Below are positions 3,323 through 55,409 of a DNA stretch of 64,000 bases, one piece after another. The position numbers and the translations under genes are program-made. The first letter of the stretch is position 1. Every line of letters begins with the position of its first letter. The stretch is from an uncultured Gammaproteobacteria bacterium (GTDB lineage: Bacteria > Patescibacteriota > Patescibacteriia > Patescibacteriales > WJLG01): positions 3,445 through 67,444 of the forward strand of contig CAZJPG010000005.1 in assembly GCA_964547855.1 (NCBI GenBank), read 5' to 3'. The notes under the pieces were generated by a model. That model was not told the origin of the DNA. It did no database searches and saw only the letters and a list, made by a program, of their open reading frames with translations.

Positions 3323-4555
3323 TTAAGGCAAATAATCTAGCGGATCGACCGGAACTCCATCTTTTCTAACTTCAAAGTGTAAATGAGGTCCAGTGGTCAA
3401 TGTTCCGGCACCGATAGTACCTGGCAATCCCCCTGATAAGGCTATAGTCTGTCCTTGTGTTACATACTCGTCCTCTGCCACAAACGACTTAGTCACATGG
3501 CCATAGACCGTTGATAGGCCATCACCATGGATCAACATTATGTAACCGTAAGCCTTGCCTTTAATATTGACCCTGGCCACATAGCCTGAATCAGCTGCGT
3601 AAATTGGAGACCCTTGAGGAGAACGGATATCAATAGCTGGATGCTCATAAACATAACGAAAAGGATAATCTGGGTCATGAAAATAAGTAGTGATATATCT
3701 CCCACTGACCGGCCAAACTAACCCACTAGCACTAAGTTTGATCTTGTTCTTGTCTAACGACGCCATCTTTTCACGAACCTGTTTTTCCATGTTCGCTATT
3801 TCAGCGGCGGCGGCATCTTGCTCACGTTTAGAGATGGCCAAGAGGTTTTGATACTCCTTCTCTGAATTCTTGGTCTCTTCCAATACGTAATTCTTCTTCA
3901 ATTTTTCATCTTCGAGGGCAGTTTTATTTCTTTCTAATTCGGCCTTCAAACTAACCAAGTCTTTGTTTTTAGCATCCAACTCCGCCTTGTCCAATTCTAA
4001 GTCTGATTTCAATTTTTTGAGTTCATCTAAACTATCCCCCATCTCGCGGTTGATATCTTCCAAATATTTAACCCTATTAAGAAAATCAGCCAGTGTATCA
4101 TTAAGCAAAAGTATTTCTAAGGTACTAGCATCACTCTCTCTGTATATCAGCTTGAGTATATTAGCGATATCTTTTTTCTCTTTATCTATCCTGTCTTCTT
4201 TATCGCCTATCTCGATGCTTGTTTTCTTAATCTCTAACGAGACCTCATTTATCTGTGCTTGAGTGTCCTCTATCTCTATGCCAGCCATCGCTATTTTATT
4301 GTCGATCAAAGAAAGCTCTTCCGACAATGTCTCGGCTTCCTCTCTGGCGTTTTGTATGGCTTGAGTGTATTGTTTCTTCTGTTTGTCCAATTTGTCTATC
4401 AATTCCCGATTACCGCTTATCTCTTGATTTAATTGCCTTATCTCGTCATTCAACCGATCATCAGAAGTCCCTAATACCGATCCTGGTGAGGACAGTAATA
4501 AACAAAAACAAGCGATTATTGGTAAAATAATCCTAATTTTAGGTATTTTCATCAT
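3323..4555 (-). CDS. secreted coiled-coil M23 (LytM/EnvC-like) peptidoglycan metallopeptidase
   Basis: Signal peptide MMKIPKIRIILPIIACFCLLLSS, a long heptad-rich region, and the C-terminal M23 signature HPAIDIR...GYIMLIHGDG...YGH...GPHLHFEVRKDGVPVDP. Start trimmed to the Met pair at 4555/4552. Confidence 0.85.
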   Translation of the reverse strand: MMKIPKIRIILPIIACFCLLLSSPGSVLGTSDDRLNDEIRQLNQEISGNRELIDKLDKQKKQYTQAIQNAREEAETLSEELSLIDNKIAMAGIEIEDTQAQINEVSLEIKKTSIEIGDKEDRIDKEKKDIANILKLIYRESDASTLEILLLNDTLADFLNRVKYLEDINREMGDSLDELKKLKSDLELDKAELDAKNKDLVSLKAELERNKTALEDEKLKKNYVLEETKNSEKEYQNLLAISKREQDAAAAEIANMEKQVREKMASLDKNKIKLSASGLVWPVSGRYITTYFHDPDYPFRYVYEHPAIDIRSPQGSPIYAADSGYVARVNIKGKAYGYIMLIHGDGLSTVYGHVTKSFVAEDEYVTQGQTIALSGGLPGTIGAGTLTTGPHLHFEVRKDGVPVDPLDYLP

Positions 4556-44043: not shown

Positions 44044-44127
44044 GGGCGTGTGGCGGAACTGGCAGACGCGCACGACTCAAAATCGTGTGGACGAAAGTCC
44101 ATGTGGGTTCGATTCCCACCATGCCCA
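44044..44127 (+). tRNA. tRNA-Leu (anticodon CAA), class II with long variable arm; CCA not encoded
   Basis: Hand-folded cloverleaf. Acceptor GGGCGTG/CATGCCC. Anticodon arm CACGA-CTCAAAA-TCGTG. Variable arm TGGAC-GAAA-GTCCA. T arm GTGGG-TTCGATT-CCCAC. Discriminator A. Confidence 0.9.
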
Positions 44128-51428: not shown

Positions 51429-52160
51429 CTATCCCCTGACCTCGCACTCTTTCACATGTTTGCGCCCAATGACGGCAAAACGCTCCATTTGTTCCTCAGG
51501 GAAGCCAGGCTTGCCGACAAGCTCGCCATCGATCATATCGGCGTCCGATTTAAAACGCTGCAAGAACCACTTATCAGCCCCCTCTATCATCTTCCCCATG
51601 TTCTCTATCGCCTCTTCATCTAAAAATCCGGGCACACAAGTAGTGCGGAATTCATAAGGCAGTCCGCTCTCCATAATAATCATAACACTTTCTTTGATTT
51701 TACCAAAATCGAATTTTGTACCAGTCGTCTTTTCATATCTATCTTCGTCGCTTTTGATGTCCATAGCCAAATAATCGACCAAGTTGTCGGACAATACTTT
51801 CTTCAACATCTCCGGATTAGTGCCATTAGTGTCGAGCTTGATATCGAAACCCAGAGCTTTTATCTTGGTCAAAAAATCCGGCAGATCATGATGTATCGTC
51901 GGCTCTCCGCCAGTCACCACCACTCCATCCAATTTACCCTTGCGCTCTTCCAGAAAATGAAAAAGGCCAGCCTCGGTTAAAGGAGTTTGGCCTTCCTCTT
52001 CCCCGCCTTTCGACGGAGTATCTTCACTCTTGCCATTCGGCACGAGCATGGGGTTGTAACAGAAGTTGCAGTTAAATGTGCAACCTATGGTGAAAACGAC
52101 GGCGGCTAAGTGACCACTATAATCTATCAGGCTCAATTTTTCCAAACCACCTATTTTCAT
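51429..52160 (-). CDS. nrdG: anaerobic ribonucleoside-triphosphate reductase activating protein (radical SAM)
   Basis: LSLIDYSG....VVFTIGCTFNCNFCYNP cluster motif; position downstream of nrdD. Confidence 0.9.
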   Translation of the reverse strand: MKIGGLEKLSLIDYSGHLAAVVFTIGCTFNCNFCYNPMLVPNGKSEDTPSKGGEEEGQTPLTEAGLFHFLEERKGKLDGVVVTGGEPTIHHDLPDFLTKIKALGFDIKLDTNGTNPEMLKKVLSDNLVDYLAMDIKSDEDRYEKTTGTKFDFGKIKESVMIIMESGLPYEFRTTCVPGFLDEEAIENMGKMIEGADKWFLQRFKSDADMIDGELVGKPGFPEEQMERFAVIGRKHVKECEVRG

Positions 52161-52217
52161 ATACTTAGGCGGACCGGCTTAATGGCCGATCGCCTAAACC
52201 GATCCGGATTTATTTAC

Positions 52218-52364
52218 TTAGCAACCGCAATCTCTAACGTCGTAGGTCTTCCTATCGACGAACTCGGCTTTCTTCCCTTTGTTCCAGTTCTTGACAGGCG
52301 TAAGCCAACCGACGACGCGGCTGTAGACGATGCATTCCTGTCTCTTGGTCTTTGTAGGGCTCAT
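52218..52364 (-). CDS. nrdD: detached C-terminal glycyl-radical segment of NrdD (48 codons; unlisted ORF or downstream exon)
   Basis: MSPTKTKRQECIVYSRVVGWLTPVKNWNKGKKAEFVDRKTYDVRDCGC carries the NrdD C-terminal signature YSR.xG[YW]...WN.GK..E...R..Y. Same strand as nrdD. Confidence 0.75.
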   Translation of the reverse strand: MSPTKTKRQECIVYSRVVGWLTPVKNWNKGKKAEFVDRKTYDVRDCGC

Positions 52365-52668
52365 AAAATCCGTAAGAATTAAGAAAAAGATTTTTTATGG
52401 CTATTTTGGCCAAATCCTCTTTCGAGGCAAAGGCTTTTTAAAACCTCCCTGAATCTAGAATCCTAACTCTTTTATTTTTGTTTTTAATTATCTTAATTAA
52501 TTATTAGGCTAATTGACTTATAATATTGCGCTCTGATCCATCCGACACAGCAGAATCGTCCCTCATCACCACCACCTGCTCATCTCTGATCTTTTCCTGA
52601 AAAGCGCTTTTCTCATTTCCCTCTGCTCCATGGATCTCTATGTCCTCTCCTTGGAAGCCGTTTTCGGC
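52338..52668 (-). other. ~330-nt intervening sequence splitting nrdD (candidate group I intron or spacer of a split gene)
   Basis: Lies between the last conserved codon of the Zn ribbon (CPKCD, ending at 52669) and the first conserved codon of the radical domain (E, 52337). Contains GNRA-capped and other local helices and no endonuclease ORF. Confidence 0.4.
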
Positions 52669-54666
52669 ATCGCACTTTGGACAATATTTGTGTTCACCAG
52701 GAAGATAACCATGTTTAGGGCAAATCGAGAATGTTGGGGTAATAGTGAAATATGGCAATTTATAATTATACACTATTTTCTTCACCAACTGTTTGGCAGC
52801 TTCCGGATCGTCGATCTTCTGACCCAAGAAACCATGCAAAACAGTTCCGCCAGTATACTTTGTCTGAAGATCGTCCTGAAGGTCCAAGGCTTCGAAAATA
52901 TCGCTAGTATGATTGACTGGCAAGTGAGTAGAGTTGGTGTAATAAGGATCGGCTCCGTTCTTGTAAGCCTCCTCATTGGCAACGATGATATTAGGATAGA
53001 CCTCTTTATCTTTCTTAGCGAAACGATAGGTCGCGCCTTCGGCCGGTGAAGCCTCAAGGTTATAGAGATTATTGGTCTCATTCTGATAAGTGGCCAACTT
53101 CTCTCTCATGAAATTAAGGATCTCGATGGCAAAAGCCTTGCCTTCCTTACTGGCGATATTCTGCTTCATGAAATTGACCAAAGCCTCATTCATGCCATTA
53201 ATACCAATGGTCGAAAAATGATTCTGCCAAAATTTACCAAATCTCTCTTTGATCTCTGACAAGTAGAATTTAGAATATGGGTAAAGTCCATCATCGGTGA
53301 ATTTCTCGATTATCTTGCGCTTGATCTCCAAGCTCTCTTTAGCCAAGTCCATCAAATGACCCAATCTCTTCTTGAAATCTTCCTTGTCACTAGACAAGAA
53401 ACCGATTCTGACGAGATTGATGGTTACGACACCTAATGAACCAGTCAAAGGGTTGGCACCGAAAAGTCCGCCACCTCTCTTACGCAATTCGCGATTATCA
53501 AGACGCAAACGGCAGCACATACTGCGAGCGTCATCTAATTTCATATCGGAATTGACGAAGTTGGAGAAGTAAGGAATGCCGTATTTAGCGGTCATCTCCC
53601 AAACCTTCTTCATAGAAGCGCGGTTCCAATCGAATTCTTTGTCTATATTGTAAGTCGGGATCGGGAAAGCGAACATTCTGTGTCTAGAATCGCCATCAAG
53701 CATGACTTCGGCGAAAGCCTCATTGAACATATCGATCTCCTTCTGGAAATCTTTATATTTCTCCGGCATCAATTTGCCGCCAATGATCACAGATTCCTGA
53801 CTGAAAGAAGGGGTTGGGGTAACATCCAAAGTAATATTGGTGAACGGAGTCTGAAAACCGACGCGAGTTGGGACGTTCAAATTAAAGACGAACTCCTGCA
53901 AAGCCTGCTTGACGTCTTCATAGTCCAATCCGTCGTATCTAATAAACGGAGCTAACAAAGTATCGAAATTAGCGAAAGCCTGGGCTCCGGCCGCCTCGCC
54001 TTGTGTAGTATAAAGGAAGTTAACGATCTGACCCAAGGCACTGCGGAAGTGCTTAGGTGGCTTAGATTGAGTCTTTTCATCGACTCCAGCAAAACCGCGT
54101 ATCAAAAGGTCCTTAAGATTCCAGCCGCAGCAATATGGAGCCAACATGCCCAAGTCGTGTAAATGGAAATCACCATTGACATGAGCATCGCGAATCTCCT
54201 GCGGATATAGCTTATTCAACCAATATTTAGCCGATATGGCAGAGGCCAGATAGTTATTCAAACCCTGCACGGAAAAACTCATATTGCTATTTTCCTTCAA
54301 TCTCCAGTCGGCCTGACCAAGATAATCTTCCATCAATCTCTCTTCGTTAGTCTTAGCATTCAAATCTCTAAGCTGACGATGCTGATCTCTATAAAGTATG
54401 AAGGCCTTAGCCACAGATATGACCTTATTCTCGATCAAGGTCTCTTCGACAGCATCCTGCACTTCTTCTACGGCAGGAATGCTTCGGGAATGGAATTTGC
54501 GAGACAATTTATCAACGACCTGGTTGACCAATTTCTCTATCATTTCATTGTCATGGAAATCGACCGATTCGGCGGCCTTGCTGATCGCCAAGGAAATCTT
54601 GTTTCTGTCGAAATCGACGATTTCTCCGGAACGCTTCCTGATTTGAGAGATTAAGTTAGTTGGCAT
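52504..54666 (-). CDS. nrdD: anaerobic (class III) ribonucleoside-triphosphate reductase, main body lacking the glycyl-radical motif
   Basis: ATP-cone N-terminus and the barrel core (...MCCRLRLD...GGGLFG...). Ends ...LPYFTITPTFSICPKHGYLPGEHKYCPKCD plus a non-conserved 55-aa tail. Confidence 0.93.
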   Translation of the reverse strand: MPTNLISQIRKRSGEIVDFDRNKISLAISKAAESVDFHDNEMIEKLVNQVVDKLSRKFHSRSIPAVEEVQDAVEETLIENKVISVAKAFILYRDQHRQLRDLNAKTNEERLMEDYLGQADWRLKENSNMSFSVQGLNNYLASAISAKYWLNKLYPQEIRDAHVNGDFHLHDLGMLAPYCCGWNLKDLLIRGFAGVDEKTQSKPPKHFRSALGQIVNFLYTTQGEAAGAQAFANFDTLLAPFIRYDGLDYEDVKQALQEFVFNLNVPTRVGFQTPFTNITLDVTPTPSFSQESVIIGGKLMPEKYKDFQKEIDMFNEAFAEVMLDGDSRHRMFAFPIPTYNIDKEFDWNRASMKKVWEMTAKYGIPYFSNFVNSDMKLDDARSMCCRLRLDNRELRKRGGGLFGANPLTGSLGVVTINLVRIGFLSSDKEDFKKRLGHLMDLAKESLEIKRKIIEKFTDDGLYPYSKFYLSEIKERFGKFWQNHFSTIGINGMNEALVNFMKQNIASKEGKAFAIEILNFMREKLATYQNETNNLYNLEASPAEGATYRFAKKDKEVYPNIIVANEEAYKNGADPYYTNSTHLPVNHTSDIFEALDLQDDLQTKYTGGTVLHGFLGQKIDDPEAAKQLVKKIVYNYKLPYFTITPTFSICPKHGYLPGEHKYCPKCDAENGFQGEDIEIHGAEGNEKSAFQEKIRDEQVVVMRDDSAVSDGSERNIISQLA

Positions 54667-54800: not shown

Positions 54801-55274
54801 CTATTTTTGTTCTTTGCTTCTCTTTCCTCGTACTAATTCATTCAAAGTATCTACGAAATCCTCAGCATCCTTGAAAGACTGGTACACAGAGGCAAATCTT
54901 ATATAAGCTACTATATCCATTTCTTTAAGATGTTCCATGACTATCTTGCCGACCTCACTGGATGGAACTTCACTCTTACGCAACTGTTGTATGTCCCTTT
55001 CTATGTTATGGACCAATTTCTTGAAGTCGTCATCGGACACTGGTCTCTTTTCCAAGGCCTTCTTAAGACCGGAAATGAGTTTGTCTCGGCTATACGTCTC
55101 TTTCTCGTTATTACGCTTAAGGACTGTAAGGTCCAAAATTTCCATTTCTTCGAAGGTCGAGAACCTGAAACCGCATTTTTCGCACTCCCTTCTTCTTCTA
55201 ATAGAAAGACCGTCGGTGGCGACCCTAGAATCTATTACTTTGGTATCGTCATGATAACAGATTGGACACTTCAT
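54801..55274 (-). CDS. nrdR: transcriptional repressor NrdR
   Basis: MKCPICYHDDTKVIDSRVATDGLSIRRRRECEKCGFRFSTFE Zn ribbon plus ATP cone. Confidence 0.95.
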   Translation of the reverse strand: MKCPICYHDDTKVIDSRVATDGLSIRRRRECEKCGFRFSTFEEMEILDLTVLKRNNEKETYSRDKLISGLKKALEKRPVSDDDFKKLVHNIERDIQQLRKSEVPSSEVGKIVMEHLKEMDIVAYIRFASVYQSFKDAEDFVDTLNELVRGKRSKEQK

Positions 55275-55380: not shown

Positions 55381-55409
55381 ATTATACACCTAAAAAAAAC
55401 CGTGGTCAA
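55381..55409 (-). promoter_or_regulatory. promoter of nrdR(-nrdD-nrdG)
   Basis: Minus sense TTGACC (55409-55404), 17-nt spacer, TATAAT (55386-55381). Confidence 0.45.

Follow-up and report, generated by a model that had tools for sequence, protein, structure and literature searches.

Layout of the nrd locus

The window analysed here, a 64,000-nt stretch of contig CAZJPG010000005.1 (positions 3,445 to 67,444; assembly GCA_964547855.1) from an uncultured bacterium placed in the Patescibacteriota, encodes a class III ribonucleotide reductase (RNR), NrdD, on its minus strand. The open reading frame (ORF) of the NrdD chain stops after the zinc ribbon, the C-terminal glycyl-radical domain (GRD) follows in a separate small ORF, and nrdR and nrdG flank this nrdD pair, with all genes on one strand. 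The original prediction, made from the DNA letters alone, had seen an interrupted nrdD and put forward a group I intron. We argue below that the locus very probably encodes a class III RNR made of two separately translated polypeptides, which that prediction had listed among its alternatives. The features of the locus are the following (positions refer to the window; aa, amino acids):

52504-54666 (-): large subunit of the class III RNR, 720 aa, GRD-less (Pfam NRDD 619 bits; NCBIfam NF006126 1033.5 bits)
52507-52671 (-): C-terminal tail of the large subunit, 55 aa (aa 666-720), no NrdD homology, end motif ERNIISQLA
52501-52506 (-): tandem stops TAA TAA closing the large ORF
52365-52503 (-): intercistronic spacer, 139 nt, A/T-rich, no Rfam family
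52374-52471 (-): structured RNA within the spacer, clade-specific (comparative fold and covariance model)
52218-52364 (-): small subunit, stand-alone GRD, 48 aa, MSPTKTKRQECIVYSRVVGWLTPVKNWNKGKK (Pfam NRDD profile 530-562)
51429-52160 (-): nrdG, radical-SAM (S-adenosylmethionine) activase, 243 aa (NCBIfam TIGR02495 NrdG2 194.2 bits, cut-off 131; Pfam Radical_SAM)
54801-55274 (-): nrdR, transcriptional repressor of nrd genes, 157 aa (Pfam Zn_ribbon_NrdR 73.7 bits and ATP-cone 68.7 bits)
55381-55409 (-): sigma-70-like promoter match upstream of nrdR, TTGACC-17-TATAAT, 11/12, a consensus match only

From the CPKC codons of the large ORF to the YSR codons of the small ORF the distance in the window is 346 nt.

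The large ORF ends without the glycyl-radical domain

The large ORF consists of an ATP-cone, the NrdD barrel and a C-x2-H...C-x2-C zinc ribbon. Pfam NRDD matches it over profile positions 1-531 of 562 (aa 125-669, E 8e-186), NF006126 over positions 3-651 of 684 (cut-off 548 bits) and TIGR02487 with 523.5 bits (cut-off 326). The catalytic motifs, in the definition of the Thermotoga maritima NrdD paper, are intact, namely the finger-loop SMCCRL (C384/C385), PYCCGW (Y178-C179) and the triphosphate motif FHLHD (168-171), and all of them are invariant across 70 relatives in which the large ORFs are 72-92% identical. The NrdD part ends FSICPKHGYLPGEHKYCPKCD and gives way to the unrelated tail; the RVxG motif is absent from the large ORF, which stops 55 aa past CPKC, just as the original prediction had described. 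All of the best 120 homologues of the large ORF (72-100% identity), which are named mostly Patescibacteria, Falkowbacteria or Parcubacteria, likewise stop soon after the zinc ribbon CPKCD, without a GRD. Searches of PDB sequences with the tail and with the small ORF returned only weak matches to T. maritima NrdD, which were used solely to place the break point.

The tail in relatives at 81-92% identity carries many substitutions. On this comparison it is read as coding sequence, because length, frame and the end motif ER[ND]II..[AIL]A are kept despite them. This end motif (ERNIISQLA at 52507-52533 in the window) closes the long-tailed large subunits, is present at 13 of 85 loci and is embedded in an otherwise variable tail; the relatives that carry it include P0002-P0027, P0045, P0063 and P0106. 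It may be a docking peptide.

Many other NrdD relatives (P0240-P0389) are 850-1880 aa long and match the query in two to four stretches, with breaks near query residues ~172, 222, 271 and 385, a pattern as expected for one to three inteins; the large ORF of the window is intein-free. Some relatives with a C-terminal glutaredoxin-like domain, which might be taken for GRD-less, have a GRD ahead of that domain.

The small ORF carries the missing NrdD C-terminus

The original prediction had also pointed to a short ORF on the same strand that reads like the end of NrdD, and this is borne out by the Pfam NRDD match to 52218-52364, which covers profile positions 530-562 (E 1.5e-8, 34.2 bits, cut-off 26.2). 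With positions 1-531 in the large ORF and 530-562 in the small ORF, the break in the family profile thus coincides precisely with the gap between the ORFs. The small ORF contains YSRVVGW...WNKGK, with G19 (codon 52308-52310) as the predicted radical glycine. Its matches are confined to NrdD models (PF13597, TIGR02487, NF006358, NF006126), and it has none to models of the pyruvate formate-lyase (PFL) type; NCBIfam holds no model dedicated to the small subunit, and the small ORF grazes only the last 30 positions of the NrdD models there.

The 119 homologues of the small ORF are, without exception, proteins that stand alone, are 40-65 aa long and share the N-terminus M-S-P-[ITV]-x-T-x-R-Q-E-C. 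Across the 85 loci described below, the small ORF never varies at the residues R, C, Y, R, V, G, W, P, N, G, K, E, D and R. The third codon positions of these residues show an entropy of 0.9-1.9 bits, near saturation, and those of the Ser and Pro codons after the start behave likewise. Invariant amino acids over variable third positions are the mark of purifying selection acting on a protein whose first codon is that ATG.

Intact relatives at ~58% identity read CPKC-x3-5-CEVYSRVVGY across the corresponding region. The conserved Cys three residues before Y/W, found in these intact relatives too, or the tail motifs may help docking, although this is speculative. Many small subunits moreover have Cys-rich C-termini, DCGC in the window (52218-52232) and NCNCNSNC, GGGCGSCGC or CCK in others, L020, L060, L082, L110, L115 and L121 among them; at least one Cys lies within the last 12 residues of 39 of the 85 small ORFs, and certain large-subunit tails end in CxxC. 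By analogy, such ends recall the redox-shuttle tails of class I and II RNRs.

The split arrangement in related genomes

A scan of one genome per species yielded 529 relatives, of which the best 80 loci were combined with five close relatives fetched separately to give 85 loci, the window included. At every one of these 85 loci the large ORF is followed, downstream on the same strand, by a small ORF that bears the radical motif, and nrdG comes next at 83. What separates the two conserved parts varies: the tails of the large ORFs are 9-57 aa long, the spacer from stop to ATG measures 11-201 nt, and the distance from the zinc ribbon to YSR ranges from 87 to 403 nt (median 189), falling below 150 nt in 13 of the 85. 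The two ORFs stand to each other in frame 0, 1 or 2 at 29, 25 and 31 loci, respectively. L001, the closest relative in the genome collection, has a run of N, a scaffold gap, within its spacer (about 3915-3925); its spacer length of 196 nt is therefore unreliable.

A second clade and the wider distribution

A second clade was sampled through one divergent GRD-less representative (~50% identity), for which 80 metagenome loci were fetched; 65 to 66 of the 71 classifiable loci are split. The small ORFs of this clade (48-65 aa, ...LKDEER[TQ]xCE[VI]WTRVMGYHRP...FNxGK) in many cases overlap the stop of the large ORF by 4 or 23 nt, as coupled cistrons typically do. At three second-clade loci (L156, L157 and L165) the large ORF and the GRD are naturally fused in frame, with a linker between zinc ribbon and GRD; in L156 and L165 this linker is long. 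Both fission and fusion occur at the boundary between zinc ribbon and GRD, and split and fused forms interconvert naturally.

When a second-clade small ORF was searched with tblastn against plasmids and chromids, 161-162 records matched, including Ralstonia solanacearum megaplasmids, Cupriavidus metallidurans CH34 and C. necator H16 pHG1, as well as Paracoccus denitrificans, P. versutus, Bradyrhizobium, Cereibacter, Azospira and Sulfuricurvum. The split was confirmed directly in four finished genomes (C. necator H16, C. metallidurans CH34, P. denitrificans and Bradyrhizobium). The end of the large ORF in C. necator H16 reads FCPRCDEEILARKRDQLAA; behind it come a 142-nt spacer, which contains an AAGGAG Shine-Dalgarno sequence, and a 66-aa ORF that carries RQPCEVWTRVMGYHRP. 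A search with this small protein gave 6190 clusters at E <= 1e-3, and the best 120 of the 6190 are all 53-108 aa long. RefSeq annotates both parts in H16 and Bradyrhizobium, as 'ribonucleoside triphosphate reductase' and a 63-66-aa 'nrdD', and other sources name the small protein 'hypothetical' or 'Oxidoreductase' (the latter in C. necator H16). The split is thus already visible in RefSeq annotation, and the copy in the window is one ordinary representative of a very large family that seems to have gone unstudied.

The CH34 genome paper (PMC2864759) gives NrdDG as Rmet_5137 and Rmet_5139, omitting the ORF between them. At the CH34 megaplasmid locus (L167) a small ORF lies at 3441-3647, and the skipped locus tag is presumably the small radical-domain ORF. 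According to a statement in the same paper that cites Siedow 1999, the nrdDG locus of H16 is needed for full denitrification and normal anaerobic growth on nitrate; loci of the split type are therefore functional.

Among the best 150 representatives of 50%-identity clusters, ~62 are intact, ~59 end 0-44 aa past the zinc ribbon, and the rest are fragments. In a rough neighbour-joining tree of 123 cluster representatives, split and intact forms are interleaved; this tree is unsupported and the classification noisy, and it therefore permits no firm conclusion on the number of origins. At L166, on a plasmid of Bradyrhizobium ottawaense, a cobalamin riboswitch (1100-1311, 119.9 bits) lies directly upstream of the large ORF of a split nrdD, and this position suggests that B12 represses the B12-independent RNR of that locus.

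A structured RNA in the spacer and transcription signals

The spacers of the closest clade of the window (six sequences) contain a conserved element of ~98 nt, at 52374-52471 (-), in which an 11-bp closing helix (52471-52461 with 52384-52374; AAGAGUUAGGA with UCUUAAUUCUU) surrounds inner helices. The comparative fold has 93.6% of its cells paired and 6 pairs with compensatory change; 2 of 500 shuffles were as good, and slid controls were far worse. A covariance model built for the element finds only the closest clade, at 110-142 bits, with weak matches in L002-L004, and no Rfam family matches it. The element ends 9 nt ahead of the AUG of the small ORF and may modulate how the small subunit is translated. 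Relatives with 11-30-nt spacers lack the element, which therefore lies outside the core system.

The promoter match upstream of nrdR is the best in the 4.2 kb scanned, and the same scan found nothing resembling a promoter or a terminator between the two nrdD ORFs on the minus strand. It is likely, as far as a consensus match can indicate, that the promoter match marks the start of an nrdR-nrdD(large)-nrdD(small)-nrdG transcription unit. Elsewhere in the window, a tRNA at 44044-44127 (+) (84 nt, 56.1 bits) is the sole Rfam match at gathering score in the 64 kb.

Alternative explanations

A self-splicing intron of group I or another type, as favoured originally, would restore one polypeptide of ~680 aa. 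A group I intron does occur in phage T4 nrdD, and interruptions are frequent in phage RNR genes (PMC3653736); the insert of ~320-346 nt in the window is of plausible length and contains hairpins, one of them with a GNRA loop, and a multi-helix fold is conserved in the spacer of the closest clade. The local hairpins listed in the original prediction are indeed present, but the minimum-free-energy fold of the 361-nt stretch is ordinary (z = -0.73), and the conserved fold lies wholly within the spacer and does not span the proposed splice sites. With the covariance models of Rfam 15, no intron or other credible family was found at E <= 10 in 51900-53100, no intron at gathering score in the whole window, and none in the nrdD genes or spacers of 16 related loci, the longest spacers included; the sole intron match among these 16 loci, a group II fragment, lies on the opposite strand of L166, ~2.5 kb downstream of nrdG. 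Aligning related loci likewise failed to uncover an allele lacking the insert: every relative is interrupted, and none of the close sister alleles is intron-less. Splicing would remove the large-ORF tail and the small-ORF N-terminus, both of which are conserved as protein, the latter with a start of its own. At certain loci the cistrons even overlap by 4-23 nt, too short for any self-splicing intron. An interval that shrinks to 87 nt (below 150 nt in 13 loci), can stand in any frame and is shared by all relatives is therefore neither a self-splicing intron nor a recoding site, and we give the intron next to no probability.

Translational recoding, that is, frameshifting, stop read-through or ribosomal bypass that would fuse the two ORFs, could draw on their closeness on one strand and on the structured RNA between them in the clade of the window; ribosomes can bypass about 50 nt, as in T4 gene 60. 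The large ORF, however, closes with TAA TAA, after which many stops follow in all frames, the spacers run from -23 to 201 nt with evenly spread frames and share no slippery or take-off/landing sites, and the ATG and the N-terminal residues of the small ORF are conserved, all of which makes recoding very improbable. Decay or misassembly would turn the small ORF into a remnant in an organism that depends on another RNR or on salvaged deoxynucleotides. Genomes of the Candidate Phyla Radiation (CPR) are reduced, and the scaffold gap in the spacer of L001 would suit an assembly error, but 85 independent assemblies share the same arrangement, as do finished genomes and at least 65 more metagenome loci. 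Purifying selection acts strongly on both parts, the large ORFs being 72-92% identical with all motifs kept; nrdG and nrdR are intact, as the original prediction had argued when it named decay only as an alternative. We therefore set decay and misassembly aside as exceedingly unlikely. Protein trans-splicing by a split intein was also rejected: tails down to 9 aa and small-ORF N-termini of ~10 aa have no room for intein halves.

The small protein could, lastly, be a facultative spare part or regulator of a large subunit that receives its radical from elsewhere, for instance from the 5'-deoxyadenosyl radical generated by NrdG or from another partner. In favour of this, the assembly of the two parts is inferred only, and GrcA/YfiD is facultative in the PFL system. 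Against it, a glycine motif is missing from the large subunit itself, and the synteny of the two nrdD ORFs with nrdG is strict (83-85 of 85 loci). The natural fusions, moreover, place the GRD exactly where intact NrdD has it, and the intact relatives at ~58% identity read straight from CPKC into the radical motif. We consider a facultative role quite unlikely.

A probable two-polypeptide class III reductase

A class III RNR of two separately translated polypeptides, a GRD-less catalytic subunit and a radical subunit, is in our judgement the highly probable identity of the locus, because the interval is variable, the two ORFs occur in all three relative frames, the start ATG-Ser-Pro is conserved, and invariant residues lie over saturated third positions. 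This possibility, which the original prediction had compared in concept with GrcA/YfiD, thus gains strong support from the comparative evidence. The subunit set comprises the GRD-less catalytic subunit, a radical subunit of ~5 kDa and the NrdG activase. Comparative sequence data establish that the chain is broken at the boundary between zinc ribbon and GRD, that the parts are co-oriented with the activase gene and that each cistron is under selection at the protein level.

Several points weigh against a two-polypeptide enzyme. We infer from sequence that the subunits associate, that the radical resides on the small peptide and that the small subunit may be exchanged. With two artificial fusions, one with the natural tail and one tail-less, AlphaFold2 left the GRD unplaced at pLDDT (predicted local distance difference test) < 50, using a large-subunit-only alignment that did not cover the GRD part of the fusions. 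The conserved structured RNA in the spacer has also to be counted here, as has the lack of a clear Shine-Dalgarno sequence before the small ORF of the window. A Shine-Dalgarno-like motif precedes 10 of the 85 small ORFs and 6 of 83 nrdG genes, the upstream regions being A-rich, and a missing Shine-Dalgarno sequence is normal for this group.

In the two-polypeptide enzyme that we propose, all genes would be co-transcribed from the promoter upstream of nrdR, and NrdG, with S-adenosylmethionine, would take a hydrogen from Gly19 of the small subunit. The Gly loop of the small subunit would then enter the barrel of the large subunit beside the finger-loop cysteines, like the tethered GRD of T4 and T. 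maritima NrdD, and catalysis would proceed as in the intact enzymes, with RNA splicing, recoding and protein ligation all unneeded. Oxygen destroys glycyl-radical enzymes (GREs) by chain cleavage at the radical glycine, and a speculative rationale for the arrangement would be that a detachable 5-kDa radical subunit could be replaced after oxygen damage without remaking the 80-kDa catalytic subunit. Going further, and with our doubts slightly outweighing our confidence, class III RNRs with a detachable radical subunit may form a large natural family that reaches from Patescibacteria to model denitrifiers, in which the ~5-kDa peptide would be an exchangeable sacrificial subunit: activated by NrdG, docked in the barrel and swapped after oxygen damage. 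If true, this would be the first stand-alone GRD outside the formate-lyase class, obligate rather than spare, and undescribed though annotated in RefSeq.

Such an enzyme would matter in several respects. GrcA/YfiD for PFL is the only known remedy for oxygen-destroyed GREs, and a two-piece class III RNR offers a genetically tractable test case (Cupriavidus necator, Paracoccus denitrificans, Ralstonia solanacearum) for GRD docking, trans activation and exchange. In annotation, the name NrdD is routinely given to the large ORF by itself, and the gap behind it could pass for an intron or a pseudogene. As to CPR bacteria, the sequences indicate that their only de novo route to deoxynucleoside triphosphates is intact. 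Our literature search found neither a split NrdD nor a stand-alone GRD serving an RNR described in any paper, although most subscription journals lay outside this search and prior remarks are possible. A June 2026 review of GREs knows small spare-part proteins only for formate lyases, and Andorfer et al. 2021 (PMC8683613) ask whether such proteins exist for other GREs.

Comparison with known systems

The enzyme of the window shares with canonical NrdD (E. coli, phage T4, T. maritima) the barrel family (NF006126/TIGR02487/PF13597), the HxHD motif, the zinc ribbon, the RVxG[YW] radical motif followed by N-x-G-K, and an adjoining NrdG2-type activase; with T. maritima NrdD it further shares the ATP-cone and a double-Cys finger loop. 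Unlike in canonical NrdD, the chain is broken straight after the zinc ribbon by a stop, a spacer and a new start, where T. maritima NrdD has 7 residues between CPVC and Y(M)RIVGY, and the GRD must therefore bind non-covalently. By every feature that could be tested in the sequence, except a covalently attached GRD, it is a class III RNR.

An interrupted nrdD frame is also known from the group I intron of T4 nrdD (sunY), and RNR genes of phages can be interrupted by inteins, which the relatives carry elsewhere in the barrel. In contrast to the T4 intron, the interruption described here has no intron core, is variable and sometimes very short, and separates two pieces that each have their own translation signals and are conserved as protein. 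A catalytic chain from two consecutive ORFs is likewise found in the split class II enzyme NrdJa/NrdJb of Pseudomonas aeruginosa and the Thermus phage phiYS40 and in nrdA-a/nrdA-b of the Aeromonas phage Aeh1, and the downstream NrdJ piece, too, holds C-terminal functional elements, including a zinc finger. The likeness to NrdJa/NrdJb is an analogy of architecture only, as the enzyme of the window is class III and not class II: RNR class, cofactor and break point differ, and the downstream piece of NrdJ is a large folded domain, not a 5-kDa radical peptide.

Alike in concept are GrcA/YfiD of E. coli and Y06I of T4, autonomous glycyl radical cofactors for PFL; YfiD, a GRD acting in trans, restores the activity of PFL that has lost its GRD by oxygen cleavage (PMC8683613). 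Like GrcA/YfiD, the small protein of the window is small, is essentially a GRD alone, is presumably activated by the cognate radical-SAM activase and would provide its radical glycine in trans. The two are of different types, GrcA being a PFL-type protein of ~14 kDa with a disordered N-terminal half, whereas small proteins of the kind in the window are NrdD-type (PF13597) and measure 5-7 kDa; nor does the GrcA gene lie between the genes of enzyme and activase, as the small nrdD ORF does. GrcA, furthermore, is a spare for an enzyme with a GRD of its own and acts only after oxygen cleavage. The large subunit described here never has a GRD (none of its best 120 homologues does), and the small protein would therefore be obligate.

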